This document shows positions 37,888 to 64,000 of a stretch of DNA of 64,000 bases, piece by piece (the first letter of the stretch is position 1; every line of letters starts with the position of its first letter). Source of the DNA: Candidatus Omnitrophota bacterium (GTDB lineage: Bacteria > Omnitrophota > Gorgyraeia > Velamenicoccales > JABMQK01); assembly GCA_028711115.1 (NCBI GenBank), contig JAQTSV010000001.1, positions 1,432,928 through 1,496,927 on the forward strand, read 5' to 3'. The notes under the pieces are model-generated. The model did not search any database and had not been told where the DNA came from. It worked only from the letters and a program-made list of their open reading frames with translations. Made by a program: the position numbers and the translations under genes.

Positions 37888-37927
37888 GGTATTTTAATCG
37901 CCGGCAAAATTACCGGTGGAATCAGTA

Positions 37928-41495: not shown

Positions 41496-41500
41496 AAAAA

Positions 41501-41528: not shown

Positions 41529-41641
41529 CAAATCCCAATGTTTAAAATTCCAAATTCCAAACTTAAGTGTTTGGAACATTAAAAAATTAGAATTTAGAAA
41601 TTGTTTAGGATTTAGATATTTAGATTTAGGATTTATCATAA

Positions 41642-42586: not shown

Positions 42587-42598
42587 ATCTTATTCCTG

Positions 42599-46182: not shown

Positions 46183-49100
46183 TTACCTGGGATAACCAAG
46201 TAATTCCTCATTTATCGGCCTTGCTGGCGCCATAATAAAGCCATCAAATCCCAAACCGTTTCTTTCCAAACCAATAATTCCTAATCTGTTGGAAAAATTA
46301 AACCCGGGCTTTCTCAATCTGTTAGCCAATGGCGAGGAGGCGGAAATATTTTTAGTTAAAAATACGTAACTTATTTGCGTGGCTGTCTTGGACTCAACTA
46401 TTCTGGTCTTTCCCACAAAAGGCCTTAAGGCATTTTCCAGATTTTGGATAGTCATTGTAGGTGCTATATTAAATATAGTATGGACTACTGTCGCGCCACG
46501 ATTAAGATGATCTGCAATAAAATTAACCACAGCATCAAAATGCATCTGGTCAGCTTCCGTCCATAGCAAAGGAATAGTGGAAAGATAAACGAGATCATAT
46601 TTCTTACGGCTGGTATTTCCTAAAATAATATCTTCTTGCTCAATTTGAAGTCTACCATCTCTTATTTTTTTCGCAATCTGTCTCCTTCTTTCTTCAGCTA
46701 AAAGAAAACCGTAAGAATAAGCAATATCTTCCCGAATATATCGGCGAGCCACCGGGTCAATAATAAAATCATCAACAATTCTCTGGAATATTCCCAGAAA
46801 TTCTTCTGCTTTATTATCCAAAATAGAACCAACAACGTCTTGGGTATATTTAACCTGGTCAGGATTAATATCGATTGCTTGGACAAAACCCGCTTTCTCC
46901 AAGAATAAAAATGGAATCGCAACAGTCCCTACAGTTAATATCCGATCATCTGCGCTTATCTCTAGCTCATCTATTATTTCCTGCGGCGTCTCCATTTGCG
47001 GCACCCAAGTAAAAGAAAAAGGCAGCATTTCTTGTATTTGGTGAATCGCATTATAAATTACATCTTTGCGGAATACAGCCGCGGTTTGCAGTTGAGCGGC
47101 CATATAAACTCCCATCATTATCGCTGTATAGATTTCATCACTAAGCAATCTTAAATCAAAAACCTGCATAAAATCTGGGGCTATAACTATTAATCCTTCG
47201 GGACCGTAATTTATAGCGGTTTCAATCCAATTTTCTACCATTCTAGCAGTAAGCCGGTCTCCTTCCATTTCCTTAAATCCGGGTATTTCTTGACGGAAGG
47301 TGTCTAATAGTTCTTGAGCTGTAGGTTTATCGCTTAAAACTGGCGAGGAGGCAGAGGGCTTTATCCGCTCGCTAACATCAAAGAAATCTCTTCTGACCAA
47401 AACTTGACTTTTTGAGCTCTCTACAATAATATCAGCCTGTTTAATCTGGCTTCTTACGATAGGAGCCTCTGTATGCTGAAGCTCTATATTCTTCCAAATG
47501 GCTTCTTGCAGAGTATAACCACGCTCTCTCATATCGCGTTGAATTTGTCTTTCAAAACAAATATCAAATGATTCATCCATGTATATCTTGATATCCAATA
47601 AATCTTTTAACTGCTCTAGGGCATAGGCGTATTGTCCCTCAATAATAACTATATCTAATTGATTGGGATCAATAAGCTCTCCTTGTCCAATTTCACCGCT
47701 TGAAGGTATATAAATAGCTGGCCTAAATGTTTGGTGTTCCTGTAAATTACGGATATGCTCTTCTAATAAATCTAAATTTAATTTATCTAATCCCCGAAGA
47801 TTTTTAGCGCGTCTTTCTGCACGGGATTTCAGATAAGCATCTATTCTCATGATGAGAACGTGCAGTCTTTTATCTTTCATAAACAATCTTCTCAATTCTT
47901 CCGCCATCGTGGTTTTACCTGCTCCAGCTTCACCAGTAATACCCACGAATAATAAATGACCTTTCTTTTGTTTTTGAAGAAGCAAATGCTCTATTTGTCT
48001 TGCTACGGGCAAGACTACATCTGTTACTCTTTGATATTCCTCACTGATTTCTGAAAATAGAGACGGATAATGAGGAACAATAATTTCATAACCGCTATGA
48101 AAATAGAAATATGAATCGAAAGTTTCCCTATCAATCTCATCTTGATCTCTTGCTTCAATAAGTCTCTTGGTTAGCTTTTGTATTGCGGCCATAGGGTCAT
48201 CATTGATTGCCTTGGACAAAGACATAACTTTTCCATGCCATTTAATGAGCGCCTCGCCATCTAGATTTTTAAGACTTTGTTTAAGTAATTTATCAATGTT
48301 ATCCACCGGCGAGGAGGCGGGGGCTGCCGGGTTTTCATCTCCGGAAACACTTGACTTTTCTGTTATCAACTCTTCTAAAATCTGTCGTTTTTGCCTAAAG
48401 ATATTGTTTTTAAAATAATGTTTCTTATTAACAAAATCAAAAATCTCCCGAAGCTCTTCAGAGTTAAAATAATTGAAGAATTCTCTAAATAACTTATTCC
48501 TCACAAGAGAAAACAGAACTTTTAATGCTCGTTCATTTCTTTTCATTCCCTCTTTTGCCATATTGTCTCGGAATATCAAAACAAGATCTGTCAATCTTCT
48601 ATTTCGGATAAGAAATGAAGTAATAAAAGCCTCCCGCTCAGGGGTTTTTGTTTCTAATTTAATTATTATTAGAATATGGACGGATCGAGGATTAAATTGC
48701 GAAGTAATTAAATCATTCATATATCTCACCGTTGTGCCTGTATTAAAAAGGTCGTCGAATAAAATAATATTCAAATCGCTCAAGTCAACACCTGGAGGAA
48801 AATATTGCTTTTGTTGTTCTATCTTTTCTCTTCGCTTTTCCTGAGACGGAATACCAGAATAAACAGCATAAGATGGTTTCTGGGCATATGAAGAAATATA
48901 TAAAATGCCTAAATCTTGGGCAATCTGTTTAGCCAATTCCCCCGCCGCTGTCAAAGTGTCCCTATTGGGGGACCCTGTAATAATGACCCAACGGACAGGA
49001 TCTCGTTCTATCTCTTCTCCATAGACTTCTTTAATTTTCCTTATAATAAGTTGCCTAAAATATTGTTCCGCTTGACGTGAACGAAACTTAAAGCCTGAAA

Positions 49101-52100
49101 ACATTTCCAAAAGTTCGGATTGCGACGATATATTTTCATCATTTACAAAGAATATATATTCCTCTCTTGGTGCCGTCACAGCTTGGAGCGGCGAGGAGGC
49201 GGTAGCGCCGGATATAGATATCCTTCTGGCAATATCTTCTATCGCCGATTCAATTTGCGATAATAATCGCGGGTTGGTGAAATACTGTTTTAATGTCGAG
49301 GTAAACTCGATTTCTTCATAGCCTTTATTTAAATCTCTGTTTAACGATTCTTTTAATTCCGCTACAGTAATATAGTTTACCTGTGCGACTGCCAATATGC
49401 CGCGTTCTCTTATACGCCTGTTTATTTCATCGGCAGCCAATGAAACAACAATTAGATATAAATTGCTGTTCTCTCTGTTATTTAGCTGACTCTGGTAATA
49501 ATACGCACCGTCTGTACCATAACCTTCGGCGTCAGGAGATATATCGGGCCTGCCTATTTTTCTGGAATCAATATTAATTCTCGTGGGCTCAAGCATCATA
49601 TCCTTTCTCATTATCGCCACTTCGTCCTCCGCCTCCGATAAAATCGTAGACATCTCATCAATAACCAAAGGAACGTGGCCGGCAATCGAAATATCCCATT
49701 TGTCGGGGGAAGAGCCCACGTGTTCCTTGCCGCCTCTTTTCTGCAGAAGAATTTCTCCTTTTGGATTTATTACAAAAACGTGCACTGTCCTGTGCCAATC
49801 ACCGTCCACATGCACAGCTCTTCTTTGTTTAAATAAACCCGTCGCCAAGCCTTGTTCGTCCAGTAATTCCAAATAAGCCCAAACTCTGACTTTGCCGCCT
49901 TCGTCGTATTTTAAGCGGCTCAAGGCCTCGCCCAATTCTTCTTCGCTTGTATTTAACCCTTGGCACATATCAACTTTAGAAACAACAATTCTCCCCAATT
50001 CCAACTTATAATCATCGGGCAAAGTTGCGACTGCTTTGGCTTCTTTAATCTCCATTAAATATCTGATTAACTCAACCGGATTATTCCTAAAATAATTTAT
50101 ACGTTCTTCATAGGAATTCCTGTTCCCCACCGGCGAGGAGGCGGAAGGCAAATAAATACCCTCAGGAGTCAATTTCACAACACCAAAAAAGACTTCACTG
50201 CTAATGGTGCATCCCGGATGAACCGGTAAACATCTACAGTCAAGCATATCGCTTTCTAACCCTGCTTTCCTTAATAAAGGATCCCAGCATCCATTATAAA
50301 AATCCTTGCTAAAGACAGCAAATCCACTTGGCTTTAGGTGATTATAAAGGTCATTTAAAATAGGCTGCATTTTGCTGGTATGGATGTTATATCGCGGGTT
50401 GTAAACTTGCTCGCTTGTCGGTTCAGGGCAGTGCCACATAATAACATTATAATCCATATCTAATCCTTCAATTCCATCGTGCAGAAATACCCTTGTATTA
50501 TCTACCAAGCCCAACCTTTTAAGATTGTAACGTGTAAGCCAAATGCATTTTTCGTCTATGTCAATAGCGTCGACTCTGGCTCCTTTTAACCTAGCAGCGA
50601 TAGTATCTAAGCCGTTACCGCAACCGATAACCAAAACCTTGTCCCCTGGTTTTACAAAATTAGCTTTCCCCATAGCCAAAACCATACGCATACACTCGTA
50701 TTTGCGTATCTCGCTTATATAGGGCTGTGTTTTTGTCGAGTAAATTCCCGGATAATTATAAATTTGATAATTTTCGCCAAAAATCGTCACATTGATCAAC
50801 CATAGGTTGTCAGCATTAAAACCTTCGAATTCTGCATCTTCACCATTCACTGATTCTGTATTCAATCCAGCGAGAGATGGGTCTGAAATGGAAAGATTTG
50901 TTAATCCCAACACCGGCGAGGAGGCGGATTCCTCGAATAATTCTGGAATCTTTTCCCCAAGCAAACCAAGAACTCTCTCGTTGTCAGCAAATATAATTCC
51001 GAGGCGTTCTCCGCCGATTTTTCTTAATTCTAGCGATAGTTTGTTTCTCTCCAAAGAACCCATAAAACCTTCAAAATATTCAGAGCCAATAGCTAGCCTT
51101 AACGAATCATCGCTCAAATACTCGCCCATACCGTTAGCCCAAACCATATACCATAATATGGCCGCAGCAACAGTATGGCAGGCGTGTTCGTTGGATTCAG
51201 ATTCCGTAAGGAGATTGTTTTCGGTAACGCAGACATTAAACATGTTCGCTGTCAAATCAGGAGAAATGTTAAATAACGCTGTTTGCAGACCGCCATGCCA
51301 TCCCCTCGCCTCATTCATAATACGAAATGTAATGCGGTGATTGACAAAATAACATGCTGTTAGCAAGTCACATGCGCTGCAGTAAGGATCCCAAACAATA
51401 TACATAAGTATGTCGTGTGCGGAAACATCTGGTTTATCAAAATGTTCCAAAATTTCTTTTGCTTTATCTAAATGTTTTTGCGAAGGCACCGGCCATTTCC
51501 ATACTCCGTTTTGCTTCCAATGAATATCCATATATCTTTCCGCATCAAATTCCTCCACCGGCGAGGAGGCGACTTCTCTATCAACGATTTCAAAACCTAT
51601 TACACAACCCAAACCGCCTCCGCCAGCCGGTAAAATCTCAATTGGCGAAAGCAGTTCTACAAGTCTATCTGACTTAACGCCTCTTTCGAGTAAAAGCGTT
51701 TTTGTCCTGTGAGCATTATTTATAACAATAATGAAATCGCTGCCATCTGGTATTTTGCTTAAGCAAGCCACATTAAGATAGGCTTCTTCTTCTGGTATTA
51801 TGACTAAATCTTGCCATAATCCTTGTTCTGTTAACAGGCGCTCAAATTCAGGATGTTTTTTAACTTCCTGATAATATATGGGGTCAATTATAATAAGAGG
51901 CCTTCCCGTAGTTACGCAGCCTCCAGGAATAATTTCCATAACAGTATTTAGATGCCTATTTTGTAAAAATATTTCTCTGCCTCCGGGCAATCTTAAAGTA
52001 ACATAGCCGGAAGGTAACTGATAAAATGATAGATCGGTAAATGAATTCCTTAATATATCTACCGCTTCTTCATCAACGGAATCGGCAAATACCATAAAAG

Positions 52101-55100: not shown

Positions 55101-58100
55101 AACCATTGCAGTTTAAAACCACGGCCAGAGATGTGTCGATTGATTCAGCAGCCAAATCTCCTCTTCTAGAAGCGCCGCCGACACGCCTGAGTTTATCATC
55201 TGAGCCATTTCTTCCTTTGTTTTCTAATCTGGACACAATGGTTAAATTACTGTATCGGCGAAAATCATTACCTTTTTCCAATACCCCATTGCCTGACATC
55301 TTTACAATTCCATCGCGGATTAATCTTGGAATGTTTGTTTCTGTGACAGAAATCCTTACGAGGTTGCCTTTTTTGATAAATTCCATAATCCGGTTTTCTT
55401 GTCCCTGTGGATACGAGGTGCAAGTAATCATGGAAACAAAATCCATATTGTCAATTTGGTAACGATTAAAAATTTCTTCATAATCAGGGTGATCAAACGG
55501 CTCATTGTCAAAATATAATCCGCTTAATACAAGATATCTTGCGTAATTACCAAAAAGATAAAACAGCGCTTCTTTGGTAAATCTCGCCCTGAGTTTTCCC
55601 GGCCGGGCAGCGCAGAACCAACATCTGACAGAACAACCCAGCGTCGGCTCAATGGCAGCCGTATTCCTAAGGATTAACCTTAAATCTCTCTTATTGAATC
55701 CAGCAAACAATTGTTTCATCTCTTCTAAATCAAAAATATTGATTTCCGAACCCGCAACTGGCGAGGAGGCGGTTTTGTTTATTGTGGGCGTTATTTCTTT
55801 ACGGTGCGCCCTGAGAGAAATATAGGTATTCCATAAAATATCTGTCATATTAAGAATGGCTAGTCGGAAATTATTAATCAAAGATGGGCTTAAATTGAAA
55901 TATCCCACTATAAACGGCAAAACAATGAAGGCAAAAGGATCTACTGTTAAGCCCCAAAATAAAATATCTTTTTTGCAAGTAGGCATAAAATTAACTTTCA
56001 GCGATTCTTTGGCTTGCCTGGCAGCATCTTTCGAAAACAATTCATTCAAAGAACTTTTTGATAGAAATACCATGCCGGGATAATATACCAAATACGCAAA
56101 AGGAGCGAACATAACAGACTGAAGAATAATTTTGAAGACGTTGGATAGTATGCTCGTCCCTAGAATATTCAAGAATGCAAGCCAGTAATGAAGTACTATG
56201 CCGTCGGTCAATACCATAATCGTGACAAAGTTAAACATCCTGCGGAAATTGAATTTTATGTTTTTCGCGGGATTTCCATTGTGTGTAATTTTCTGGGCGA
56301 TAAAATCACCTATCGCAGATAAGAAAAACACCGTACAGATATCGGATAGCAAAGGACTGGTCGCCAATAATAACAAATACAAACGCCAGGCAGATTCCAT
56401 AACAGCCCAAATCGGCAAAAGGAAAATAACCGGGCCAAGAACAAAACTTAAAATGACGATAATTTTAACCCGCCACTTTAAATTATTCGATATCGGCGAA
56501 GAGGCGGTTCGACTTCGTTCACCACTAGCGCGCAACGATGAGGAAACCCCGAGTGAAACGAGGGGCGAGGAGCTGGCGCTACCCGCAGGATAGGCGATTA
56601 CAACTTTCGTGCGGCCGTTTTCGCATACAAACTGGCTTTCGCCGCCAATTTGATTAATAAGATTTTTGATTATGAGTACGCCTCTGCCGTGGGTTTTAAA
56701 AAGATTCTCGTCGAGCGTCGGATCATTTAATCCTGCTACATTAAACTCGCCGTTATTTTCCACGCTGAAGAAAAATTCCCTGCCTTTAATTCCATAAATT
56801 ATTTTTATATCCCCGCCTTCTCTGTGATAAATTGCATTGTTCACTGCTTCGCTGACGCAAAGAGCCACATCAGCAGCCTCGCTTTCCGAAAAACCATTTT
56901 CCATAAGATTTGCCTCGAAAGAATTTACAAAACTTTGCATCTGGACAGACATCTCATTGCAAGATGAATCCTTGATAATAAGAGTTTCTGTATAATGCGC
57001 CGAGCCTTCCACCGGCGAGGAGGAAAATCCTTTCTTCTGAAGAATATAGGCTCCTTCTTTAGGCTCGTTATAAAAAGGACCATTGTAACCAAAAAGAGCC
57101 CCTTGCCTTTCTAATTCTAAAAGTGTCCTATCTTCTACGGAAACCAATAAATCGCGTACTGAACTGGCGCGCTTAATTGCTCTGTCGCTATCGACAATCA
57201 CAAATCCGCCTGGCCTTAAGAATTGTTCAATGACCCGGGCTGGCAATAAAAATTTTCCGTCTTCGATATAAACATCTCCAGCTTTGATTATGATAAAATC
57301 AACACCTTGGGACATCTCTAAATATTTTGCGTAAGCATTGATCTCCAAACCGTCTGTCTTTTCAACAAAAATCAAGGAGCGCTCTCTTCCTTCTACCATA
57401 AAATTCAATTCAAAGGCTTGCGGATTGCCTTCTCTTGTTGCTAAATCAATATTTCCTCGCGCAATAATTTTTAATTCTTCCCTTAAGAAAGGCCATATTC
57501 CTTTACATATTTCTAATAAGTCGCTAGAAACAAAACCCACCAGGCACTTTTCCATCAAGTACAATGTAACGATGCCATCTTCATCTATGCGGGAAGGAGA
57601 ATTAAAGATATCCACCATCTCTCCTTTTATCATCATCATCATCGCCACCATACCATAGTGCTCAAGAAGTTTTTGCTGATACCTCTGGGAAACTGTATGT
57701 AAGTCTGCATGAAAAGGAAGTTTTTCTACAAATATATATCGGGAAGCATTAGTAGCGAAATACGCTGTGGAAATATCTGCGGCAGAACCGATTAAAAGCG
57801 CTGTTTTTTCCCGCCTGTTATCTTGTGCGGCTTTTCCATTAACAACTTCGCAAACGCGCCTTAAATAACGAAGATTCAAACCTCCTCCGACCAATTTATC
57901 TGTGGGCCAATTTATCGGCGAGGAAGATTTGTCTTTTGTCTTTTCGTGGCTGCGGCTTGGTTTTTTGGCGCTATCGCCGTAATGGGTGTGGCGGTCCTTA
58001 ATATTAGCGAAGATGATATAAAGAATGGCACTAACTAATAATATCAAAATAGTTTTTGGCGCCATAGGGTCCCTGAAAGCAATCTTAGACCACTTAATCT

Positions 58101-61100
58101 TATGCAGCCATTGCCAAGATAAAACCAAGAATAAGCCGGCTGCGCCGACGTAAATAAGCGGCAAAAATCTCTTGTATAATTGGCGTGCGGTAACAAACAA
58201 TGATGGCCTGGGCGGAAATTGAGCATCCATTGAATTTCTTATTTGAATTAGGGCTTTGTAGTAATACGTACTTGACTCTTTAGAGAGCCTGATTAATTCT
58301 CTGTAGTAATCTTCCAATACATCCGTCAAAAAGGGATTATCGTGGACAGAACCGTAAAGTTCGTCCATTTCCTGGCTTGTCCCGTCTAGTTCTTCTTCAA
58401 TAAGCATAAGCGATGTATCAAAGCTATGGGAGTTTTTGCCTAAATATTCACTATCTTCAGTCAAAAGCCGCTCTAATAAATATAAAACTCTATTAGAAAT
58501 ATCTAAGCCGTAAGGAACGGTTACAGTAATTCTTAAGTTAATACTCTGCTCTCCTCGAATAAGGCTCAACGCCTCTTCTGTCTTATTTTCACTTTTGAGA
58601 TTCAAAAGATTACCGTTAAGGTAAATCGTTATATCGACTTCAGTATATCCTTCAATAACTTTTACCATCTTGCCAAGATTCAGCAGCGAGTCCGAATCTA
58701 TCTTGGAAGCCAATACGATATTCTTTTCGACAAAGGCGGGTTTAAACCGAACCACCTTGGTGCGGCTGTCTGCGGCGAGCGGCGAAGAGGTGGCATCATT
58801 AATAAAAGGCCTGAAGGTCTGTTTCTGATGAATGATATCAACGATGGCCGACTGCCAATAGGGAGCGATAGACCCTGGCGTTAATATAAAAGCGCTAGCA
58901 CCTAAAATCTGTTCAAGTATGAATTGGTTTATTTTGCTTTGCTCAACACTCAAAAATAATTCTTCGCTTAAATGCGTTACGCCAAATCGTTTCTGCAATA
59001 AATCCCTTGCCCGTATATAGCCATATTTTCCTGGATTATATTCATCGACTAAAATCCTATCTGCATATGCCTTATCATGCTGAACCCTGGTAGGATCAAT
59101 AAGCAGAATCGGCCTGTTTTCATAATAAAAAACAATCCAGACGTGCGCAAAAGGAACACCCGCCTCTTCTGTAAAACCGTACTCAACTTCAAATGTGGTT
59201 TGGGGATAATATTTCCCTTCTCTGTTCAACACATCCATAACATTCCTTGGTTGCGGATTGAATTCATAACAGAAAAGCGAACACAGCGCACAACCAAGTA
59301 TGCAGGCAAAGTCAAAGCATATCTGTCCTTGCGCAACAGCTTCTTCATTCCTGTGTGTAAACTTTGGCGGAATCTTTGCGACATTGCGTCTGACTATCTC
59401 CCAGATACGCTTTGCATTCTCATCGCACAAGAATTCTTTTATACTTGCTACTGATTTTTCCTGTATCGGCGAGGAGGCACCAGAATCAACTTCCTCTGGT
59501 AGTTTAAGATTTGCGATTTCGCCTAACGAGGTCAGTAAACTACAGGTGGGCGAGACAGGTTGTAATGATGACCTGCCGTTACGATGTATACGACTACGCG
59601 ATGACGGTTCAACAGCTAGTGCGCGTATTAAATGGGCTGCACTTGCAGTGTCAAAGGTCAACGTTATATTAGGATCAAGACCGAGCTGCACGGTAAAAAG
59701 ACGAATTATCAATATAATATCCCTACGTAACAGCCGAAAATAGGTAGACTGAAGATTGCCATCAAGGTCGCTAAAAGAAAGTTTTTCTGAAAGGGCGCTA
59801 ATTACTCCCTTTTTATAAAAATAACAACCTATATATGCAGGATCGTATAATTCAATTTCAATTGAATCTCTTCTAGATATATAATGAATATGGCCGCGGA
59901 TGCTCATTTTATAACCTTCTATGCCCAGGTCTTTATGATTGACTTTTCCTATGGCAAAATACGACCCTTCTTTTCCTGCAGTAACGAATATGCTAAAAGG
60001 AACCGATGTGGATTGTGATTCAAGGCATTGAATCAATTGTATCCGTATCTGCCCAACATCAAATCCCATGAAATGAAGATAACCAACATTTGTGTTGTTT
60101 TTTAGCGAATCAATTACAGATTTCCGCGTCACCGGCGAGGAAGCGGAATTTTCCACCGGCGAAGAGACAGCTATATCGCCAAAGGCGCTATTTCCTTCCC
60201 CGAGAACAAAAGCAAATAAATGCTTCTTTTCTACCCTTTCCCTATGTATAACTAAATCATATTGCGGCGTATATCCATATCTTTGTTTGTGCGCTGCCAT
60301 CCTGTATTCAATAACGTCATCAAGTGCTCTTTCTTCGGCTTTTTCATAAATTTCACGCCGTAATTCGTCTCGCGCCCTGATATTAATCTTGATATCAAAA
60401 CCCAGATATTTCCTATGAGAAAAACTTCCAACCCAAGGTTCTGTTTTTAAGGCTTCAAATCCCTCCAATACAACCACGTCATATTTTCTTGAATCAGCAA
60501 GATTAATAATTTCTTGTGCCGCAGCTTCGTGATCCCACTCATCTATCCATTCTGCGGGTCGTTCTGACCACTCCGCTGCGCCAATCACTATGGATGGGCT
60601 CTTAAATTCCTGCCTGAAGAAATCATTTAACCGTACAATAATATAGGTAAACGGTAAATCAAAATGGGTTTCCCAATTATCCAAGAACGTGGATTTGCCG
60701 GTTGCTGCGTCGCCGTCGACAACAACCAAGATAGTCCTTTTCTTATGGACTTTTGATATCCTGTCATAAATAGCGCCTATGGTTTTACGGACTGCATTTC
60801 TAGTAGAACTTGTGCCGCGATGCTCTATCTCCATAAATGAGGTGCGCGACAATTTAACGGTTGCTTTCATTCTAAAGAATTTTTCGTTGTTTAATAATGT
60901 CGTTATTGATTTACGGCGCGCGTCGTCATTCTGCAATCTCTTAAGAAGGCGGCTATGGACGACAAATGTTGACTGTAAAGGATGAATAAGATGGTCAGCT
61001 TCATCGGAGAAAATCATTTCGCGAAGATTCTGAAAATCATTGCTGTAGTGTTTCTCTAAATATGCTGGTGGCCGCACGACATACCAAGAAAGAAATACTT

Positions 61101-64000
61101 TGCCTTCTTTAGTTAAAGCAACATATCCTTTTTGCCCATGAATCGTTAGAGGGAATTCCCTTACACAAGAAACACCAAACCATTCGACTAAATCCTGGAT
61201 ATTTTCCTGCCATTGCTTAACAAAACCGAACTGCAATGCCGCAATAAGCGATTCCTCTTCTGTCCTGTAAAGGCCTTCAGACTCCAATCCTTCTGGCTGA
61301 AGAAAACTTATTTCGAAAGTTCCGTAAGCGTTATTAAATTTCACCCTGACATTTAAATTAAGCGCCCCCATACCGGTTTGCCTAGTCACTTTGGCAGGAA
61401 AAGCCGCAGCGTAATCTAGCAGATGCCATTTGCGGTATTGAGTATTAACTCCGTATAATTCAAGCGGCGAGCTGGAGGCGGAGCCAAGATGTTTTTTAAG
61501 CCAGTATTGCCTGACTTCGTCGGGATATTGGCTTAAAGCAAGTTTCATCGTCTCTATCAAATTCTTGTCATGAATAGATACGCTATATTCAATGAAAGTT
61601 ATAAAGTAATCTGCATCAATATAGCCGCCTTTCGGCTCTGCCTGGAACCTCCAGCTTTTATCAGCAAGTAATTCAGGCATTAATTCATCGAAATGAAGAT
61701 TTATAAAATCCATTACTCTTTTTTCGTGCTCTGCCACAAGCGCATCAAATAAACCTTCTCCCCTGCGGCTGCCTTTATCAAAATATTTCATTCTCTTAAA
61801 GTATCGATGCGGAATATTATCAAAACCTATTGCCACAACAATATCTTTTATTGCAACGGCCAAATGATCTTTTTGACATAAATTAGTTGCATTCTCCAAA
61901 CACCTAAATGCCGCATCTAAAGTGGACAACGGATTCTTCTCAGATTTATAGTAAGAAGCTATGTGGCGTAGCGCTTTGGATAACGCATCCTTCTGTTTTT
62001 CAGTGGTGGCCTCAATAAATAATTTGCCTATATTTCTAAAAAGTTTTGCGGCTTCCTGAGGTTCCAATGCCATGTCTAAAATTACCTCATATATGCACTG
62101 GCTCAATTTTTCTTTGGCTTCGGCGTCTTTCTCGCTTTCGTAACGCCTTAGCAAATCTTTTAACAGGCTGCCTTCTACTTCTACCGCATCGCGGAGAAGT
62201 ATTGACGCTGTTAACGACTCCTCCTCATCCTCGGCGGTTGCAATCGTCTTCAATAATTTAGGATAATCCTTAGCCGCCTCCGGAGGTGTCTTTATAGAGT
62301 GGAAATAATTTAATGCCGGCGGGACAACTTTTGCTTTCACCTTCTCAGGGAATCCTCTAACAGCCGCATCTACGGCATCTAAAAGATTTTCCCGCTGATA
62401 TTTTGTTTGGGCGACCTTAATCCCCCTCCTAAACAAAGTGAATACCTTCGGCGATAAACATTCAGAGGCATCTGCCATAAGGTTAAGGACTAAATAACTT
62501 AGTCGGTCTTTGCGAGACCTGTTTCTTTCCAGAAAATACATGATGCAGATTTCTCTGTAAAATTGCGGGCGTTTTTCCACAATTTTTCTTAAGCTCTCCA
62601 GACAAGAATCTTTTTCTGCTTCATTCTCCGATGTTAAATAATTCGTAAGCAATTCATATTCAAGGCCGCCTCTTACCTGCCTGGGGATTAATTTTATGGC
62701 ATAAACAACATTACTCGCGCCGCCAATTCCTGCCCTGACAAAATATTCATACAAACCAACTATGGTTTTACCATCTAAAACCTTCAGCCGCCGATTTATC
62801 TTTTTCCTGCTTAATCCCGTAACATTTCCTTTTTCGCTAATCCTTACTCTCGGTATCGAAGCGATAATTCCCGAGACAATCTCATACCCCCGAGGATTAT
62901 TTTCCAGTAATTCCTTCCATTCAATCTGCTTTATGCCAGATTTGTTTATCATTTCCGTCAATTCTTCCAAAGTCCTGACTGTCCTGAAAGAAACTCTCGG
63001 TTCAACTAAACCCAAATCCTCCAGCATAAATACGACAACCTTCTTACCTAAATTATCTTCTCTCTCGGTGTGATAAACGGCGTAATATTGATAAAGCCCG
63101 CTTGCCACTTCGCCATTTAAGAATTCTCTCGGTTTTCTAAAATGGGCTTCTTCTAATTTTGTCAGATCATCGCTTATGCCTTCTTCCTGGGCAATAAATT
63201 TCACAGCCTCTGCAACTATATTTTTCCCTTGGGGATTATCTCTTAACAATATCTTCCAGGGTATTTGTTTATACACGCCTCTTTTTAGTAAATCCGTTAA
63301 TTCGCTAAGCGTCGTAATATCCTTTGCGGATTTCTGTTGTTCAATCAATCCTGCATCTTCCAGCATTAATATAATTGCCGGCTTACCGCTATCAGCTGTT
63401 TGCCTGTTATAGAAATCAACCAAGCCGGTCAATTTGCGGTTTCCCAACCAAACTCTGTTCTCCCTGAAGTGATCGTCTGCTAACTTCATAAAATCATCGA
63501 AAGTCAATGGCTCATCCTGGACTTTGCCTGTAATTTCCCGCGTCAGCTTGATAATTATTTCTTTTACTATCTCGCTGGCTTGCGGGTTGTGCTCAAAAAG
63601 CAGCGCCCACCTGAGCGTCTTTCTTAAACGAAATAGATCTACAAATTCAGAATACGTTCTAACCTGACTTATCCGGCTGGAAAATGAGATTGGGCTGGAG
63701 GCACCAGCTAAATTATCAAAGTTGTTTTCCTCCTGGTGCCGACGTCCTAAGCGAAGCGAAGGGCTGGAGGAAGTTTTGCTGCGGGAAGAACGTGGTTTTT
63801 TCAAGTTGAGTATTATTCTGACTTCTGTTCCGTGTGCGTCATTATCAGTCTCTGATACATCCAAACTTCTCACACCTTCTTCGTCCTGAGTGAATACAGA
63901 GTGCTTTCCTTTATGATAAGTTTCATAGGTAATTTCTATGCCGAATTGTCTTGCCCGTTCTAGAACATATAGTTTGACTGTTCGTCCATGGCCGCCCAGA
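46183..64000 (-). CDS. Giant multi-module protein, more than 5,930 aa, N-terminus outside the window
   Basis: Uninterrupted frame from the TAA at 46183-46185 to base 64000. The track start at 63873 is just the first GTG. In-frame translation of 63874-64000 (LGGHGRTVKLYVLERARQFGIEITYETYHKGKHSVFTQDEEG) has no stop. Modules and junctions are listed separately below. Confidence 0.85.
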   Translation of the reverse strand, partial: LGGHGRTVKLYVLERARQFGIEITYETYHKGKHSVFTQDEEGVRSLDVSETDNDAHGTEVRIILNLKKPRSSRSKTSSSPSLRLGRRHQEENNFDNLAGASSPISFSSRISQVRTYSEFVDLFRLRKTLRWALLFEHNPQASEIVKEIIIKLTREITGKVQDEPLTFDDFMKLADDHFRENRVWLGNRKLTGLVDFYNRQTADSGKPAIILMLEDAGLIEQQKSAKDITTLSELTDLLKRGVYKQIPWKILLRDNPQGKNIVAEAVKFIAQEEGISDDLTKLEEAHFRKPREFLNGEVASGLYQYYAVYHTEREDNLGKKVVVFMLEDLGLVEPRVSFRTVRTLEELTEMINKSGIKQIEWKELLENNPRGYEIVSGIIASIPRVRISEKGNVTGLSRKKINRRLKVLDGKTIVGLYEYFVRAGIGGASNVVYAIKLIPRQVRGGLEYELLTNYLTSENEAEKDSCLESLRKIVEKRPQFYREICIMYFLERNRSRKDRLSYLVLNLMADASECLSPKVFTLFRRGIKVAQTKYQRENLLDAVDAAVRGFPEKVKAKVVPPALNYFHSIKTPPEAAKDYPKLLKTIATAEDEEESLTASILLRDAVEVEGSLLKDLLRRYESEKDAEAKEKLSQCIYEVILDMALEPQEAAKLFRNIGKLFIEATTEKQKDALSKALRHIASYYKSEKNPLSTLDAAFRCLENATNLCQKDHLAVAIKDIVVAIGFDNIPHRYFKRMKYFDKGSRRGEGLFDALVAEHEKRVMDFINLHFDELMPELLADKSWRFQAEPKGGYIDADYFITFIEYSVSIHDKNLIETMKLALSQYPDEVRQYWLKKHLGSASSSPLELYGVNTQYRKWHLLDYAAAFPAKVTRQTGMGALNLNVRVKFNNAYGTFEISFLQPEGLESEGLYRTEEESLIAALQFGFVKQWQENIQDLVEWFGVSCVREFPLTIHGQKGYVALTKEGKVFLSWYVVRPPAYLEKHYSNDFQNLREMIFSDEADHLIHPLQSTFVVHSRLLKRLQNDDARRKSITTLLNNEKFFRMKATVKLSRTSFMEIEHRGTSSTRNAVRKTIGAIYDRISKVHKKRTILVVVDGDAATGKSTFLDNWETHFDLPFTYIIVRLNDFFRQEFKSPSIVIGAAEWSERPAEWIDEWDHEAAAQEIINLADSRKYDVVVLEGFEALKTEPWVGSFSHRKYLGFDIKINIRARDELRREIYEKAEERALDDVIEYRMAAHKQRYGYTPQYDLVIHRERVEKKHLFAFVLGEGNSAFGDIAVSSPVENSASSPVTRKSVIDSLKNNTNVGYLHFMGFDVGQIRIQLIQCLESQSTSVPFSIFVTAGKEGSYFAIGKVNHKDLGIEGYKMSIRGHIHYISRRDSIEIELYDPAYIGCYFYKKGVISALSEKLSFSDLDGNLQSTYFRLLRRDIILIIRLFTVQLGLDPNITLTFDTASAAHLIRALAVEPSSRSRIHRNGRSSLQPVSPTCSLLTSLGEIANLKLPEEVDSGASSPIQEKSVASIKEFLCDENAKRIWEIVRRNVAKIPPKFTHRNEEAVAQGQICFDFACILGCALCSLFCYEFNPQPRNVMDVLNREGKYYPQTTFEVEYGFTEEAGVPFAHVWIVFYYENRPILLIDPTRVQHDKAYADRILVDEYNPGKYGYIRARDLLQKRFGVTHLSEELFLSVEQSKINQFILEQILGASAFILTPGSIAPYWQSAIVDIIHQKQTFRPFINDATSSPLAADSRTKVVRFKPAFVEKNIVLASKIDSDSLLNLGKMVKVIEGYTEVDITIYLNGNLLNLKSENKTEEALSLIRGEQSINLRITVTVPYGLDISNRVLYLLERLLTEDSEYLGKNSHSFDTSLMLIEEELDGTSQEMDELYGSVHDNPFLTDVLEDYYRELIRLSKESSTYYYKALIQIRNSMDAQFPPRPSLFVTARQLYKRFLPLIYVGAAGLFLVLSWQWLHKIKWSKIAFRDPMAPKTILILLVSAILYIIFANIKDRHTHYGDSAKKPSRSHEKTKDKSSSPINWPTDKLVGGGLNLRYLRRVCEVVNGKAAQDNRREKTALLIGSAADISTAYFATNASRYIFVEKLPFHADLHTVSQRYQQKLLEHYGMVAMMMMIKGEMVDIFNSPSRIDEDGIVTLYLMEKCLVGFVSSDLLEICKGIWPFLREELKIIARGNIDLATREGNPQAFELNFMVEGRERSLIFVEKTDGLEINAYAKYLEMSQGVDFIIIKAGDVYIEDGKFLLPARVIEQFLRPGGFVIVDSDRAIKRASSVRDLLVSVEDRTLLELERQGALFGYNGPFYNEPKEGAYILQKKGFSSSPVEGSAHYTETLIIKDSSCNEMSVQMQSFVNSFEANLMENGFSESEAADVALCVSEAVNNAIYHREGGDIKIIYGIKGREFFFSVENNGEFNVAGLNDPTLDENLFKTHGRGVLIIKNLINQIGGESQFVCENGRTKVVIAYPAGSASSSPLVSLGVSSSLRASGERSRTASSPISNNLKWRVKIIVILSFVLGPVIFLLPIWAVMESAWRLYLLLLATSPLLSDICTVFFLSAIGDFIAQKITHNGNPAKNIKFNFRRMFNFVTIMVLTDGIVLHYWLAFLNILGTSILSNVFKIILQSVMFAPFAYLVYYPGMVFLSKSSLNELFSKDAARQAKESLKVNFMPTCKKDILFWGLTVDPFAFIVLPFIVGYFNLSPSLINNFRLAILNMTDILWNTYISLRAHRKEITPTINKTASSPVAGSEINIFDLEEMKQLFAGFNKRDLRLILRNTAAIEPTLGCSVRCWFCAARPGKLRARFTKEALFYLFGNYARYLVLSGLYFDNEPFDHPDYEEIFNRYQIDNMDFVSMITCTSYPQGQENRIMEFIKKGNLVRISVTETNIPRLIRDGIVKMSGNGVLEKGNDFRRYSNLTIVSRLENKGRNGSDDKLRRVGGASRRGDLAAESIDTSLAVVLNCNGFTNIVPVKPCQADHFANSLKVLISPDKINQPINTGMTLREIFERSIVLKAQYDSSKDKIMVFNNGNVFLIYIGKDVSANSKVAGMRRVPFAFMFLRLKYLAWDLLYWEQKTLKLLFPDSSSSGKNSQISASSPVEECEENIFLSQSMPVGHKRALLRLGDAIVIQITEGCFNPCAHCCVPSRMCRFINQMRVNTIEELLLQINSVGWRQSTVNPVQFYLGSDPFNHPKLLEIIFLCYKVLGQYHFVLNTHGISEYESQVLIREFYGRGVSYLRQLKLDGIKISVIVSIHPFYPDVIEVVEEVCGGEGYSEKFDAQIIETLRQKGIIKKYIEHYRKIFKVLLELTSIISVEIILSFIYDDKAFPFSKKIVDILRAELEGAYPELKSKTKVGISSLIYSGRAVNIFRTLKVEPPVSADKQTEINRPEQKIVFKPNGSIELVIDSNIPTHSDIRRIYAKLNPEEFKRFITAIVRLLKNEFSQRDIQDCFKEAQTKYFSLNGVFYVPLFVEESVIEQIKGMELQGDEVLSTETCREIAAKISHLPVALALLDELGMEVQIHKGITYQFFKTRFRISKNGTASSPVEINWEPYRLAISYLPRLIRNRLSRGIVRLTPVETTLADTGSLKGVKLYEAPLSEYFYSNLRSAIKKVDKKLFNEWKQLIARFANEERQFSEKFQGNIILVKEKRKTIAYCIFRIIFSEGVGELLFIAVKNDNRNQGIGRCLYTYLINKLRNNGIEKLELTIACDNESSLRLIERLRKEGLLSFEREEFPYSTPHYWNYHIQLRDETQDLAPTENRKTEYASSPVGKKGKDNDLSVYGGRIEQIPPQKKLSAVVGRNNSWDVNLSNYADLFMAIESRMNDVVQREQLKALVRERLTMLAGSVGMIDSAFEQWQQRDSIWKSEKLRKGFIPVYFARLFFSLAEQAPGTEFSIIENTLRQNKINFRVLSEEDKKQWGNSVEWPQDRMVISPDEKWVIWNVSRFDDAISAGEQGAVISGIAKTPFMVFADSVDEEAVDILRNSFTDLSFYQLPSGYVTLRLPGGREIFLQNRHLNTVMEIIPGGCVTTGRPLIIIDPIYYQEVKKHPEFERLLTEQGLWQDLVIIPEEEAYLNVACLSKIPDGSDFIIVINNAHRTKTLLLERGVKSDRLVELLSPIEILPAGGGGLGCVIGFEIVDREVASSPVEEFDAERYMDIHWKQNGVWKWPVPSQKHLDKAKEILEHFDKPDVSAHDILMYIVWDPYCSACDLLTACYFVNHRITFRIMNEARGWHGGLQTALFNISPDLTANMFNVCVTENNLLTESESNEHACHTVAAAILWYMVWANGMGEYLSDDSLRLAIGSEYFEGFMGSLERNKLSLELRKIGGERLGIIFADNERVLGLLGEKIPELFEESASSPVLGLTNLSISDPSLAGLNTESVNGEDAEFEGFNADNLWLINVTIFGENYQIYNYPGIYSTKTQPYISEIRKYECMRMVLAMGKANFVKPGDKVLVIGCGNGLDTIAARLKGARVDAIDIDEKCIWLTRYNLKRLGLVDNTRVFLHDGIEGLDMDYNVIMWHCPEPTSEQVYNPRYNIHTSKMQPILNDLYNHLKPSGFAVFSKDFYNGCWDPLLRKAGLESDMLDCRCLPVHPGCTISSEVFFGVVKLTPEGIYLPSASSPVGNRNSYEERINYFRNNPVELIRYLMEIKEAKAVATLPDDYKLELGRIVVSKVDMCQGLNTSEEELGEALSRLKYDEGGKVRVWAYLELLDEQGLATGLFKQRRAVHVDGDWHRTVHVFVINPKGEILLQKRGGKEHVGSSPDKWDISIAGHVPLVIDEMSTILSEAEDEVAIMRKDMMLEPTRINIDSRKIGRPDISPDAEGYGTDGAYYYQSQLNNRENSNLYLIVVSLAADEINRRIRERGILAVAQVNYITVAELKESLNRDLNKGYEEIEFTSTLKQYFTNPRLLSQIESAIEDIARRISISGATASSPLQAVTAPREEYIFFVNDENISSQSELLEMFSGFKFRSRQAEQYFRQLIIRKIKEVYGEEIERDPVRWVIITGSPNRDTLTAAGELAKQIAQDLGILYISSYAQKPSYAVYSGIPSQEKRREKIEQQKQYFPPGVDLSDLNIILFDDLFNTGTTVRYMNDLITSQFNPRSVHILIIIKLETKTPEREAFITSFLIRNRRLTDLVLIFRDNMAKEGMKRNERALKVLFSLVRNKLFREFFNYFNSEELREIFDFVNKKHYFKNNIFRQKRQILEELITEKSSVSGDENPAAPASSPVDNIDKLLKQSLKNLDGEALIKWHGKVMSLSKAINDDPMAAIQKLTKRLIEARDQDEIDRETFDSYFYFHSGYEIIVPHYPSLFSEISEEYQRVTDVVLPVARQIEHLLLQKQKKGHLLFVGITGEAGAGKTTMAEELRRLFMKDKRLHVLIMRIDAYLKSRAERRAKNLRGLDKLNLDLLEEHIRNLQEHQTFRPAIYIPSSGEIGQGELIDPNQLDIVIIEGQYAYALEQLKDLLDIKIYMDESFDICFERQIQRDMRERGYTLQEAIWKNIELQHTEAPIVRSQIKQADIIVESSKSQVLVRRDFFDVSERIKPSASSPVLSDKPTAQELLDTFRQEIPGFKEMEGDRLTARMVENWIETAINYGPEGLIVIAPDFMQVFDLRLLSDEIYTAIMMGVYMAAQLQTAAVFRKDVIYNAIHQIQEMLPFSFTWVPQMETPQEIIDELEISADDRILTVGTVAIPFLFLEKAGFVQAIDINPDQVKYTQDVVGSILDNKAEEFLGIFQRIVDDFIIDPVARRYIREDIAYSYGFLLAEERRRQIAKKIRDGRLQIEQEDIILGNTSRKKYDLVYLSTIPLLWTEADQMHFDAVVNFIADHLNRGATVVHTIFNIAPTMTIQNLENALRPFVGKTRIVESKTATQISYVFLTKNISASSPLANRLRKPGFNFSNRLGIIGLERNGLGFDGFIMAPARPINEELLGYPR
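46327..46341 (-). repeat. Junction J21 (A-S-S-P-L), last junction before a 47-aa C-terminal tail
   Basis: Plus strand CAATGGCGAGGAGGC. Exact 11-mer. Confidence 0.9.
46342..47337 (-). other. Giant-ORF module M18: Rossmann/SAM-binding-like domain (DUF3419/BtaA-like?)
   Basis: DRILTVGTVAIPF...VQAIDINPDQVKY resembles the SAM-binding start of BtaA-like proteins. Weak. Confidence 0.3.
47338..47352 (-). repeat. Junction J20 (A-S-S-P-V)
   Basis: Plus strand AACTGGCGAGGAGGC. Exact 11-mer. Confidence 0.9.
47353..48303 (-). other. Giant-ORF module M17: uridine kinase/phosphoribulokinase-family P-loop kinase
   Basis: LLFVGITGEAGAGKTT (about 47910-47950), IVIIEGQYA, and RQIQRDMRERGYTLQEAI (Udk-like RD..eRG segment). 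Confidence 0.65.
48304..48318 (-). repeat. Junction J19 (A-S-S-P-V)
   Basis: Plus strand CACCGGCGAGGAGGC followed by GG. Exact 17-mer copy. Confidence 0.95.
48319..49185 (-). other. Giant-ORF module M16: type I phosphoribosyltransferase domain
   Basis: PRPP-binding motif NIILFDDLFNTGTTV at about 48728-48772. Confidence 0.6.
49186..49200 (-). repeat. Junction J18 (A-S-S-P-L)
   Basis: Plus strand GAGCGGCGAGGAGGC. Exact 11-mer. Confidence 0.9.
49201..50127 (-). other. Giant-ORF module M15: Nudix-fold domain with partly degenerate Nudix box
   Basis: HRTVHVFVINPKGEILLQKR...PDKWDISIAGHV fits the Nudix/IDI-like fold. The box GHVPLVIDEMSTILSEAEDEVAI keeps only some of the consensus acidic residues. 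Confidence 0.5.
50128..50142 (-). repeat. Junction J17 (A-S-S-P-V)
   Basis: Plus strand CACCGGCGAGGAGGC followed by GG. Exact 17-mer copy. Confidence 0.95.
50143..50910 (-). other. Giant-ORF module M14: class I SAM-dependent methyltransferase
   Basis: Motif I KVLVIGCGNGLD (about 50605-50640) and motif II VDAIDID. HCPEP occupies the position of the N/D-PP-Y/F motif. Confidence 0.65.
50911..50925 (-). repeat. Junction J16 (A-S-S-P-V)
   Basis: Plus strand CACCGGCGAGGAGGC followed by GG. Exact 17-mer copy. Confidence 0.95.
50926..51555 (-). other. Giant-ORF module M13: unknown (Cys/His-rich)
   Basis: About 210 aa. Contains DPYCSACDLLTACYF and NEHACHTVAAAILWY. No family recognised. Confidence 0.3.
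51556..51570 (-). repeat. Junction J15 (A-S-S-P-V)
   Basis: Plus strand CACCGGCGAGGAGGC. Exact 15-mer copy. Confidence 0.95.
51571..52686 (-). other. Giant-ORF module M12: guanidino-group-modifying-enzyme-like (arginine deiminase/amidinotransferase/DDAH fold)
   Basis: NRHLNTVM resembles the HLDTV motif. The C-terminal EEEAYLNVACL...IVINNAHRTKTLLLERGV...PAGGGGLGCVIGF resembles the GGG-x-x-C catalytic-Cys end of the superfamily. Confidence 0.4.
52687..52701 (-). repeat. Junction J14 (A-S-S-P-V)
   Basis: Plus strand CACCGGCGAGGAGGC. Exact 15-mer copy. Confidence 0.95.
52702..53358 (-). other. Giant-ORF module M11: GNAT N-acetyltransferase domain
   Basis: Acetyl-CoA motif A, FIAVKNDNRNQGIGRCLYTYLINKL, at about 52930-52990. 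Confidence 0.65.
53359..53373 (-). repeat. Junction J13 (A-S-S-P-V)
   Basis: Plus strand CACCGGCGAGGAGGC followed by GG. Exact 17-mer copy. Confidence 0.95.
53374..54699 (-). other. Giant-ORF module M10: radical SAM domain 2
   Basis: CX3CX2C motif in IQITEGCFNPCAHCCVP, encoded at about 54561-54600. Confidence 0.6.
54700..54714 (-). repeat. Junction J12 (A-S-S-P-V)
   Basis: Plus strand CACCGGCGAGGAGGC followed by GG. Exact 17-mer copy. Confidence 0.95.
54715..55755 (-). other. Giant-ORF module M9: radical SAM domain 1
   Basis: CX3CX2C motif in AIEPTLGCSVRCWFCAA, encoded at about 55611-55640. Confidence 0.6.
55756..55770 (-). repeat. Junction J11 (A-S-S-P-V)
   Basis: Plus strand AACTGGCGAGGAGGC. 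Exact 11-mer. Confidence 0.9.
55771..56490 (-). other. Giant-ORF module M8: Mpv17/PMP22-family integral membrane domain
   Basis: LSAIGDFIAQKI resembles MPV17 GLGDIISQQL. QSVMFAPFAY resembles DQGGFAPCF. The C-terminal ILWNTYISLRAHRK resembles MPV17 VIWNSYLSWKAHR. Multiple TM helices. Confidence 0.65.
56491..56505 (-). repeat. Junction J10 (A-S-S-P-I)
   Basis: Plus strand TATCGGCGAAGAGGC. Confidence 0.85.
56560..56577 (-). repeat. Junction J9 (A-S-S-S-P-L)
   Basis: Plus strand GAGGGGCGAGGAGCTGGC. Followed after 18 codons by J10. Confidence 0.8.
56578..57009 (-). other. Giant-ORF module M7: RsbW/SpoIIAB-like HATPase (anti-sigma serine kinase-type) domain
   Basis: N-box VSEAVNNAIYH. A G1-like FSVENNGEF and a G2-like KTHGRGVLIIKNL are followed by GRTKVVIAY. 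Confidence 0.6.
57010..57024 (-). repeat. Junction J8 (S-S-S-P-V)
   Basis: Plus strand CACCGGCGAGGAGGA. Confidence 0.85.
57025..57912 (-). other. Giant-ORF module M6: possible degenerate class I SAM-methyltransferase fold
   Basis: TALLIGSAADIS (motif-I-like) and FLRPGGFVIVD (post-III-like). Weak. Confidence 0.3.
57913..57927 (-). repeat. Junction J7 (S-S-S-P-I)
   Basis: Plus strand TATCGGCGAGGAAGA. Confidence 0.8.
57928..58776 (-). other. Giant-ORF module M5: unknown soluble region + two-TM hairpin
   Basis: Hydrophobic helices FLPLIYVGAAGLFLVLSWQWL and TILILLVSAILYIIFANI lie near the C-terminal end of the module (about 57990-58170). Confidence 0.5.
58777..58794 (-). repeat. Junction J6 (A-T-S-S-P-L)
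   Basis: Plus strand GAGCGGCGAAGAGGTGGC. Confidence 0.75.
58795..59463 (-). other. Giant-ORF module M4: transglutaminase-like / papain-fold cysteine protease-like domain
   Basis: Cys-His-Asp arrangement. GQICFDFACILGCAL (about 59290-59335) is followed by PFAHVWIVFYYENRPILLIDPT (about 59085-59150). This matches the C..F ... HAW.E ... DPT transglutaminase-core pattern. Confidence 0.5.
59464..59478 (-). repeat. Junction J5 (A-S-S-P-I)
   Basis: Plus strand TATCGGCGAGGAGGC. Contains the exact 11-mer GGCGAGGAGGC. Confidence 0.9.
59479..60129 (-). other. Giant-ORF module M3: unknown
   Basis: About 215 aa between junctions, no motif recognised. Confidence 0.3.
60130..60144 (-). repeat. Junction J4b (A-S-S-P-V)
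   Basis: Plus strand CACCGGCGAGGAAGC. Confidence 0.85.
60154..60168 (-). repeat. Junction J4a (V-S-S-P-V)
   Basis: Plus strand CACCGGCGAAGAGAC. Separated from J4b by only 3 codons. Confidence 0.75.
60169..61461 (-). other. Giant-ORF module M2: unknown N-half + P-loop NTPase (uridine kinase/PRK-like)
   Basis: Walker A ILVVVDGDAATGKSTF (about 60690-60735) and Walker-B-like YDVVVLEGFEAL. Confidence 0.45.
61462..61479 (-). repeat. Junction J3 (A-S-S-S-P-L)
   Basis: Plus strand AAGCGGCGAGCTGGAGGC, with one extra Ser codon. Confidence 0.8.
61480..63687 (-). other. Giant-ORF module M1: three tandem ~112-aa repeats, then a ~400-aa alpha-helical (HEAT/ARM-like) region
   Basis: Repeats at aa 71-182, 183-295 and 296-407 share W..LL..NP.G..IV ... 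G.....GL..YY ... V.MLED.GL.E. No catalytic motif seen. Confidence 0.5.
63688..63702 (-). repeat. Junction J2 (A-S-S-P-I)
   Basis: Plus strand GATTGGGCTGGAGGC. Peptide motif kept, codons diverged (AGC, CCA). Confidence 0.75.
63757..63774 (-). repeat. Junction J1 (T-S-S-S-P-S)
   Basis: Plus strand CGAAGGGCTGGAGGAAGT. Peptide motif kept, codons diverged. Confidence 0.7.
63775..64000 (-). other. Giant-ORF module M0 (partial): possible C-terminal part of an HATPase-like domain
   Basis: ...FTQDEEGVRSLDVSETDNDAHGTEVRIILNL resembles the G2-box end of module M7. It is followed by the same double junction with an 18-codon spacer as M7. Confidence 0.3.

Follow-up and report, generated by a model that had tools for sequence, protein, structure and literature searches.

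Giant multi-enzyme open reading frames (ORFs) of the Omnitrophota have been described by West-Roberts et al. 2023 (bioRxiv 10.1101/2023.11.21.568195) and by Nielsen & Lui 2026 (bioRxiv 10.64898/2026.06.07.730766). This phylum is characterized by giant ORFs, of 10,000 to 150,000 codons, and whether their products work as single chains or are cut is explicitly open in the literature. Some of the literature on Omnitrophota or giant proteins states that cleavage points and recognition motifs are not known, and according to one of the two preprints the missing cleavage-point information blocked a module-wise analysis. Text searches of both preprints retrieved no report of a boundary motif, in contrast to the gene considered here, which has one: its 3′ part lies in a 64,000-nucleotide stretch of DNA from a Candidatus Omnitrophota bacterium (contig JAQTSV010000001.1, positions 1,432,928 to 1,496,927; hereafter the window), and a short peptide recurs between its modules. 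Such a motif is not mentioned in the literature examined on Omnitrophota or giant proteins, and nothing relevant was returned when full texts were searched for the pentapeptides or for “polyprotein” in combination with Omnitrophota. The class of giant genes is a known one, and boundary punctuation adds to it a feature that is new and can be tested.

In viral polyproteins, such as those cut at the picornavirus 3C sites or the potyvirus NIa sites, the boundary code is lineage-specific. The gene resembles them in that many unrelated units are joined in one ORF, a short conserved peptide stands at each boundary and the code varies between lineages; it differs in being a cellular bacterial gene, known here from its sequence, with no cognate protease identified and with a motif unrelated to the viral sites. 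MARTX toxins are likewise bacterial mega-proteins built of modules. An internal cysteine protease domain frees their effector modules by cutting the linkers after leucine, with no fixed pentapeptide, and their module content differs between strains; here, in contrast, the pentapeptide is fixed, and neither the MARTX protease domain nor RTX repeats were found in the window part of the gene. In polymorphic toxins, variable modules are demarcated by VENN in CdiA and by PxxxxDPxGL in Rhs proteins, the latter being also a self-cleavage site. A short conserved peptide and its DNA thus mark module joins both there and here, but each of those toxin proteins has a single junction, with orphan cassettes after it, whereas the enzyme modules of the gene are separated by at least 22 junctions and the window contains no orphan copy. 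Finally, in multi-core precursors of ribosomally synthesized and post-translationally modified peptides (e.g., cyanobactin PatE), every unit to be released is bordered by copies of a short recognition sequence. P0016, a relative described below, contains tandem 20-residue units that look similar, whereas most units of the window gene are complete enzymes, 150 to 740 residues long, rather than peptides.

The part of the gene that falls in the window is as follows:

46183..64000, minus strand: 3′ part of the giant multi-enzyme ORF, about 5,940 codons (stop codon at 46183-46185; open at the window edge)

The first-pass annotation of the window had placed the start of this ORF at 63873, but the frame contains no stop as far as position 64000 and runs open to the window edge. 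On NCBI contig JAQUPK010000001.1 (GCA_028716625.1) the gene is called at 15,478 residues, the window part being its 3′ third. By arithmetic from the gene call, it stops about 14 nucleotides short of the end of this 983,760-bp contig, and 15,478 codons is a lower bound for the gene length; because the call ends so close to the contig end, the gene is possibly longer. The host belongs to the Omnitrophota: NCBI labels the neighboring proteins “Candidatus Omnitrophota bacterium”, and the same proteins are present in three assemblies. In a sister assembly the same neighboring proteins are found on a 1,566,446-bp contig. Giant multi-enzyme ORFs are at least 10,000 residues long and encode many distinct Pfam families along the chain, none dominant by copy number. 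The gene has these properties and is a member of the “multi-enzyme” class of Omnitrophota giant ORFs (class 1 of Nielsen & Lui 2026), sharing with the published examples the phylum, the length class, methyltransferase, HATPase, GNAT, radical SAM, NUDIX and phosphoribosyltransferase domains, and transmembrane segments.

The first-pass annotation had reported 22 occurrences of a linker, [S/T]-A-S-S-P-[V/L/I], in a single codon phase of one ORF. This was borne out: there are 22 in-frame x-SSP-[VLI] sites in the ORF, 21 of which fit [ASTV]-S-S-P-[VLI], while the N-terminal-most is a degenerate SSSPS. From the N-terminal side, the sites are:

63757..63771, minus strand: junction 1, SSSPS (degenerate)
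63688..63702, minus strand: junction 2, ASSPI
61462..61476, minus strand: junction 3, SSSPL
60154..60168, minus strand: junction 4a, VSSPV
60130..60144, minus strand: junction 4b, ASSPV (8 residues beyond 4a)
59464..59478, minus strand: junction 5, ASSPI
58777..58791, minus strand: junction 6, TSSPL
57913..57927, minus strand: junction 7, SSSPI
57010..57024, minus strand: junction 8, SSSPV
56560..56574, minus strand: junction 9, SSSPL
56491..56505, minus strand: junction 10, ASSPI
55756..55770, minus strand: junction 11, ASSPV
54700..54714, minus strand: junction 12, ASSPV (perfect 17-nucleotide consensus)
53359..53373, minus strand: junction 13, ASSPV (perfect 17-nucleotide consensus)
52687..52701, minus strand: junction 14, ASSPV
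51556..51570, minus strand: junction 15, ASSPV
50911..50925, minus strand: junction 16, ASSPV (perfect 17-nucleotide consensus)
50128..50142, minus strand: junction 17, ASSPV (perfect 17-nucleotide consensus)
49186..49200, minus strand: junction 18, ASSPL
48304..48318, minus strand: junction 19, ASSPV (perfect 17-nucleotide consensus)
47338..47352, minus strand: junction 20, ASSPV
46327..46341, minus strand: junction 21, ASSPL (the last; a 48-residue tail follows)

As can be seen, the SSP[VLI] core of the proposed linker stands. The serine or threonine ahead of the Ala position is less regular: S or T is present there at only 11 of the 22 sites, with A or G at six more. Neighboring sites are 8 to 742 residues apart, and their flanks exceed all of 2,000 random position sets in hydrophilicity and in the content of disorder-promoting residues. 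When all six frames of the 64 kb were searched for [ASTV]SSP[VLI], 21 of 21 matches fell in the frame of the giant ORF. The first-pass annotation had named frequent occurrence in unrelated proteins as the observation that would reduce the motif to a compositional quirk; in the 23 other large ORFs of the window (10,313 residues), even the tripeptide SSP does not occur.

Cutting the ORF at the sites yields 23 pieces, including three very short ones between paired sites (8, 23 and 23 residues). The claim that the marks lie between domains was upheld, since no Pfam domain crosses a site and the chain resolves into about 20 unrelated enzyme-sized units. The modules (S-adenosylmethionine is abbreviated SAM) are:

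61465..63690, minus strand: M02, 742 residues, helical-repeat-like; no Pfam family above threshold, weak INTS7_N match
60157..61464, minus strand: M03, 436 residues, weak P-loop kinase (AAA_18) match
59467..60132, minus strand: M05, 222 residues, no family found
58780..59466, minus strand: M06, 229 residues, no family found
57916..58779, minus strand: M07, 288 residues, two hydrophobic helices near the C-terminus
57013..57915, minus strand: M08, 301 residues, no family found
56563..57012, minus strand: M09, 150 residues, HATPase_c_2 (anti-sigma-kinase-like ATPase) by Pfam, E=1.6e-14
55759..56493, minus strand: M11, 245 residues, polytopic membrane module, weak Mpv17/PMP22 match
54703..55758, minus strand: M12, 352 residues, radical SAM by Pfam
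53362..54702, minus strand: M13, 447 residues, radical SAM match just under the Pfam cut-off (27.3 vs. 29.5 bits)
52690..53361, minus strand: M14, 224 residues, GNAT acetyltransferase by Pfam
51559..52689, minus strand: M15, 377 residues, neither family nor homologue found
50914..51558, minus strand: M16, 215 residues, neither family nor homologue found
50131..50913, minus strand: M17, 261 residues, class I SAM methyltransferase by Pfam
49189..50130, minus strand: M18, 314 residues, Nudix-like, weak in Pfam but with clear homologues
48307..49188, minus strand: M19, 294 residues, phosphoribosyltransferase (Pribosyltran) by Pfam
47341..48306, minus strand: M20, 322 residues, PRK/uridine-kinase family by Pfam, with a 120-residue N-terminal extension
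46330..47340, minus strand: M21, 337 residues, no family above threshold, weak methyltransferase match

Eight modules are without a Pfam family, nothing reliable being retrieved at relaxed thresholds either. A module-versus-module comparison revealed no paralogy among the modules, which rules out that the array arose by tandem duplication. M17-M20 were used as queries in an exhaustive HMMER search, which retrieved proteins of 276-329 residues that each match a single module nearly end to end, from which it follows that one module corresponds to one whole protein. Word-indexed homologue searches with M15-M16, M05-M08 and a synthetic junction-peptide profile gave no match in an index from which the giant protein itself is apparently absent. 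Scans of genome contigs returned either no relatives or ordinary uridine kinases only, and a scan of metagenome contigs returned 80 loci with ordinary uridine kinases and no giant ORFs. By eye, M02 contains about three internal repeats of about 110 residues each; an INTS7_N (Integrator subunit 7) domain is named by a 2026 preprint in a 71,949-residue Omnitrophota protein.

The junctions are also conserved as DNA. A recount of the repeated oligonucleotides gave the same numbers as the first-pass annotation, far above shuffle expectation: on the plus strand the 11-mer GGCGAGGAGGC occurs 12 times (0.02 expected), the 15-mer CACCGGCGAGGAGGC seven times (0 expected) and the 17-mer ending in GG five times, all copies lying in one reading frame of one minus-strand ORF. 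Nucleotide conservation beyond the need of the peptide, which had also been proposed, is true for this gene, but an alignment of the flanks confines it to about 17 nucleotides (NCC GCC TCC TCG CCG GTG), with an information content of zero outside. The preference for G/C-ending codons noted in the first-pass annotation is evident, the G+C content at third codon positions being 0.85 at the junctions vs. 0.36 elsewhere in the gene. Position by position, the codons are:

Ala codon GCC: 14 of 15 at the junctions; gene background 0.25; p 4e-8
First Ser codon TCC: 18 of 22 at the junctions; gene background 0.16; p 2e-11
Second Ser codon TCG: 20 of 22 at the junctions; gene background 0.13; p 2e-16
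Pro codon CCG: 16 of 22 at the junctions; gene background 0.24; p 2e-6
Val codon GTG: 10 of 12 at the junctions; gene background 0.15; p 4e-7

Even the variable residue ahead of the mark is encoded by NCC in 13 of 16 NCN codons. The match to the 17-nucleotide consensus improves toward the 3′ end of the gene, with 0-3 mismatches there vs. 3-8 near the 5′ end (Spearman rho -0.68, p 5e-4), and this gradient may reflect younger or more recently homogenized modules at the C-terminal end of the protein. That the sites stem from a compositional quirk or an assembly artefact is hardly credible: zero shuffles attain the observed counts, the motif is confined to one of the six frames and to one gene of the window, and independent NCBI and Logan assemblies carry the same sequence, the copies of the 3′ part that could be compared (a small sample) being identical to the window.

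The codon bias could point to the RNA rather than the peptide, and the first-pass annotation had suggested a role of the CCUCC-containing element in translation or mRNA structure. The junction codons end in G or C and are uncommon in the gene, which would fit a rare-codon pause, and GUG, a potential internal start, stands at the end of ten sites; an anti-Shine-Dalgarno (SD) mimic or a structured RNA would be further variants. This proposal did not survive examination, and we consider it very improbable. Folding z-scores of 19 junction windows ranged from -1.1 to +1.3, none beyond shuffles, and no Rfam family was matched. Being of the same sense as the 3′ tail of the 16S rRNA, CCUCC cannot pair with it. 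In-frame starts with an SD-like sequence follow 5 of the 22 junctions vs. 4.3 expected, no ORF starts after the antisense GGAGG, and other lineages keep the peptide without the CCUCC string. An SD/anti-SD interaction element was accordingly rejected, there being no complementarity to the 16S tail and no enrichment of starts on either strand.

Two further types of element were considered and rejected as well. An integron-type cassette array does not fit a non-palindromic 17-mer with no flanking signal and no integrase among the scanned neighbors. A 2A-like ribosomal skipping peptide (D(V/I)ExNPGP) does not fit a mark of 5 or 6 conserved residues with no NPGP and no upstream conservation.

The long relatives retrieved by the HMMER search each share a single module type with the window gene, and other long Omnitrophota proteins are, judging from their sequences, punctuated too, either by the same mark or by a genome-specific one. 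xSSP[VLI] is found 6 times in P0005, 10 times in P0054, 8 or 9 times in P0021 and 11 times in P0016, counts that 0 of 2,000 shuffles reach, and it is present in every ORF of locus L089, which encodes P0016. P0005, P0054 and P0021, as well as P0026, are named Omnitrophota by NCBI. The mark is written differently at these loci: L003 (P0005) uses mostly TCC-TCG-CCG, the same codons as the window, L004 (P0054) has a codon set of its own, with AGT-TCT-CCG at 4 of 10 sites, and in L006 (P0021) and L089 the serine codons are fully mixed, drawn from both the TCN and AGY families. Among the other fetched loci, the 11-mer was present as one chance copy only. Because other giant proteins keep the peptide in scrambled codons, the peptide appears to be the selected feature.

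Other relatives carry other marks. P0013 (L005) has 13 copies of [AV]SS[SA][IVLA], and 6 more lie in another giant gene, encoded by the other strand of that contig. At locus L090, SS[AS]G is found 4 and 5 times in P0026 and an adjacent 3,042-residue gene. P0018, a complete protein of 6,567 residues that is not among the proteins named Omnitrophota, contains RAEVR 12 times vs. 0.017 expected. A homologous boundary can be followed across three of the genes: the window copy of the uridine-kinase module has ASSPV at both ends, the P0005 copy has SSSPV at both, and in P0013 the module lies between ASSSI and ASSAV. In P0121, a homologue that stands alone, the module begins with a start methionine. 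P0016 further contains, at residues 2188-2400 and 3520-3575 (L089 10001-21010), seven tandem 20-residue units, each with ASSPI or ASSPL, and about five tandem 11-residue SSSPSRTESLR units. Such mini-peptides, with the mark at either side, recall the precursors of multi-core peptides. We also noticed N-L-A-M-[MR]-S...GGID[FL]T in P0004 (~705-735) and P0006 (~980-1010), shortly after or between modules, and L-A-P-x-S just ahead of a kinase or methyltransferase module in P0007, P0014, P0015 and P0002. These motifs may be further punctuation codes.

The comparison bears on a second proposal of the first-pass annotation, that the identical in-frame junctions let whole modules be deleted, duplicated or swapped. 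In its strongest form, the function of the junctions of 15-17 nucleotides would lie in the DNA, as crossover points for insertion, deletion and exchange of modules, the peptide being a tolerated by-product. Part of this stands: synonymous positions are fixed far past the need of the peptide, including the third base of the upstream variable codon, identity to the consensus rises toward the 3′ end, L004 has its separate codon “dialect”, and module sets differ between lineages, each long relative having one module type in common with the gene. Identical DNA is, however, not required elsewhere. Nucleotide conservation past the need of the peptide is shared by this gene and L003 but is absent from L006 and L089; the codons of the latter two are fully scrambled, so the mark can be maintained without identical DNA. 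Moreover, 17 nucleotides without flanking homology are too short for the usual RecA-dependent exchange, within the 64 kb the junction is not found outside the ORF, be it as a further copy or in a spare cassette, the few NCBI and Logan copies compared show no module variants, and no recombinase was found among the scanned neighbors. We therefore regard a DNA-level function as improbable. Most simply, the near-identical 17-nucleotide junction DNA is secondary and lineage-specific, and would stem from a shared recent origin or from short-tract homogenization of the junction copies; such a history, rather than a universal nucleic-acid function, is suggested by the gradient toward the 3′ end, by codon “dialects” that differ between clades and by the absence of uniform DNA from other lineages. 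Uniform junction DNA could nevertheless ease in-frame module exchange.

Three observations argue that the peptide is read in trans: it is kept under scrambled codons, a code is common to separate genes on one contig, and marks are interchangeable at one homologous boundary. The pentapeptide would then be a punctuation mark recognized at the protein level by a trans-acting factor, most likely a dedicated endoprotease, whose cuts would release single enzymes, membrane modules and short spacer peptides from the translation product. The recognition code would drift between lineages along with its reader, which would account for xSSP[VLI] in other codons, or [AV]SS[SA][IVLA], SS[AS]G and RAEVR, in other giant genes. 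A site-specific protease would be the most economical reader, in which case the gene product would be a polyprotein; independent units in one ORF with a short conserved motif at each boundary are what such a product would show. Of the three readings offered in the first-pass annotation, a polyprotein processing site is the best supported, though indirectly, by the same peptide in scrambled codons, by contig-shared codes and by hydrophilic linkers at module edges. We favor it tentatively, and put its chances at slightly below even.

Several findings weigh against processing. No cleavage products have been observed for any punctuated protein. Scans of the 5,940 window residues (the 3′ third of the gene), of neighboring genes and of four other punctuated proteins revealed no protease domain, and we know of no protease site that the mark resembles. 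The uniformity of synonymous codons in this gene (p 2e-6 to 2e-16 per position) is unexplained by a function of the peptide only, and L003 shares the TCC-TCG-CCG codons with the window even though its kinase module is only 32% identical. In addition, no punctuation was seen in the long relatives P0023, P0012 and P0017.

A serious rival to cleavage is an uncleaved, possibly modified linker: the mark would be a hinge, or a site for a modifying enzyme (e.g., O-glycosylation or phosphorylation of Ser-Ser) that stiffens or protects the linkers of one tethered multi-enzyme chain. Three of the four codes place Ser-Ser within a hydrophilic linker, no protease was found in the scanned sequences, and the membrane modules within the chain could anchor a tethered assembly; the 2026 catalogue takes the products as single inner-membrane-anchored polypeptides. 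A passive hinge, on the other hand, needs neither a strict pentapeptide nor a contig-wide common code, RAEVR contains no serine, and tandem mini-peptides of 8-32 residues between two marks make poor hinges. On balance, an uncleaved linker seems unlikely to us.

If the marks are processing sites, the protease might be encoded in the giant genes themselves. By eye, M06 contains G-Q-I-C-F-D-F-A ... H-V-W ... D-P-T, like the Cys-His-Asp core of transglutaminase/papain-like enzymes, and M06 is an unverified candidate for an internal protease, with no Pfam match even at E<5. Single-sequence AlphaFold models of the candidate modules were poor (mean confidence score, pLDDT, 38 for M06 and 44 for M16), and sequence searches of the PDB with M06 and M16 gave chance-level matches only. 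In P0018, residues 4550-4905 comprise transmembrane helices followed by HETAH, with weak sub-threshold matches to DUF6782 and SprT-like (putative metallopeptidase) families; this module is a possible built-in processing protease of that lineage.

A broader version of the polyprotein reading can be put forward as possible, though we would not expect it to hold in full. The Omnitrophota multi-enzyme giant genes would be genuine cellular polyproteins, each genome having its own cleavage code (ASSP[VLI] here; ASS[SA]x, SSAG and RAEVR elsewhere), the product would be cut into dozens of free enzymes, the ORF would amount to an operon devoid of promoters and ribosome-binding sites, and in this lineage junction DNA kept identical would allow in-frame gain and loss of modules. 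Should cleavage prove true, no larger polyprotein system would be known from cellular organisms, and gene expression in reduced bacterial genomes would be seen to be organized in a new way. In either case the marks are concrete candidate cut sites that can be checked in existing metaproteomes such as PRIDE PXD025008, they offer a principled way of splitting giant proteins into units for structure prediction and annotation, and the code is a character whose variation over hundreds of genomes can be set against that of protease families.

The gene next to the giant ORF on its downstream side is:

45448..45873, minus strand: PilZ-domain gene

A PilZ-domain gene is also located 3′ of the SS[AS]G-punctuated gene pair in another Omnitrophota metagenome-assembled genome (L090 18300-18662), and the position of the PilZ gene after punctuated genes may be a conserved synteny. 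Farther downstream of the giant gene, at 31479-44993 on the minus strand, is a sugar-utilization cluster comprising an ATP-binding cassette (ABC) sugar transporter (a solute-binding protein and two permeases), GH2-like and GH116 glycosidases and a ROK kinase.

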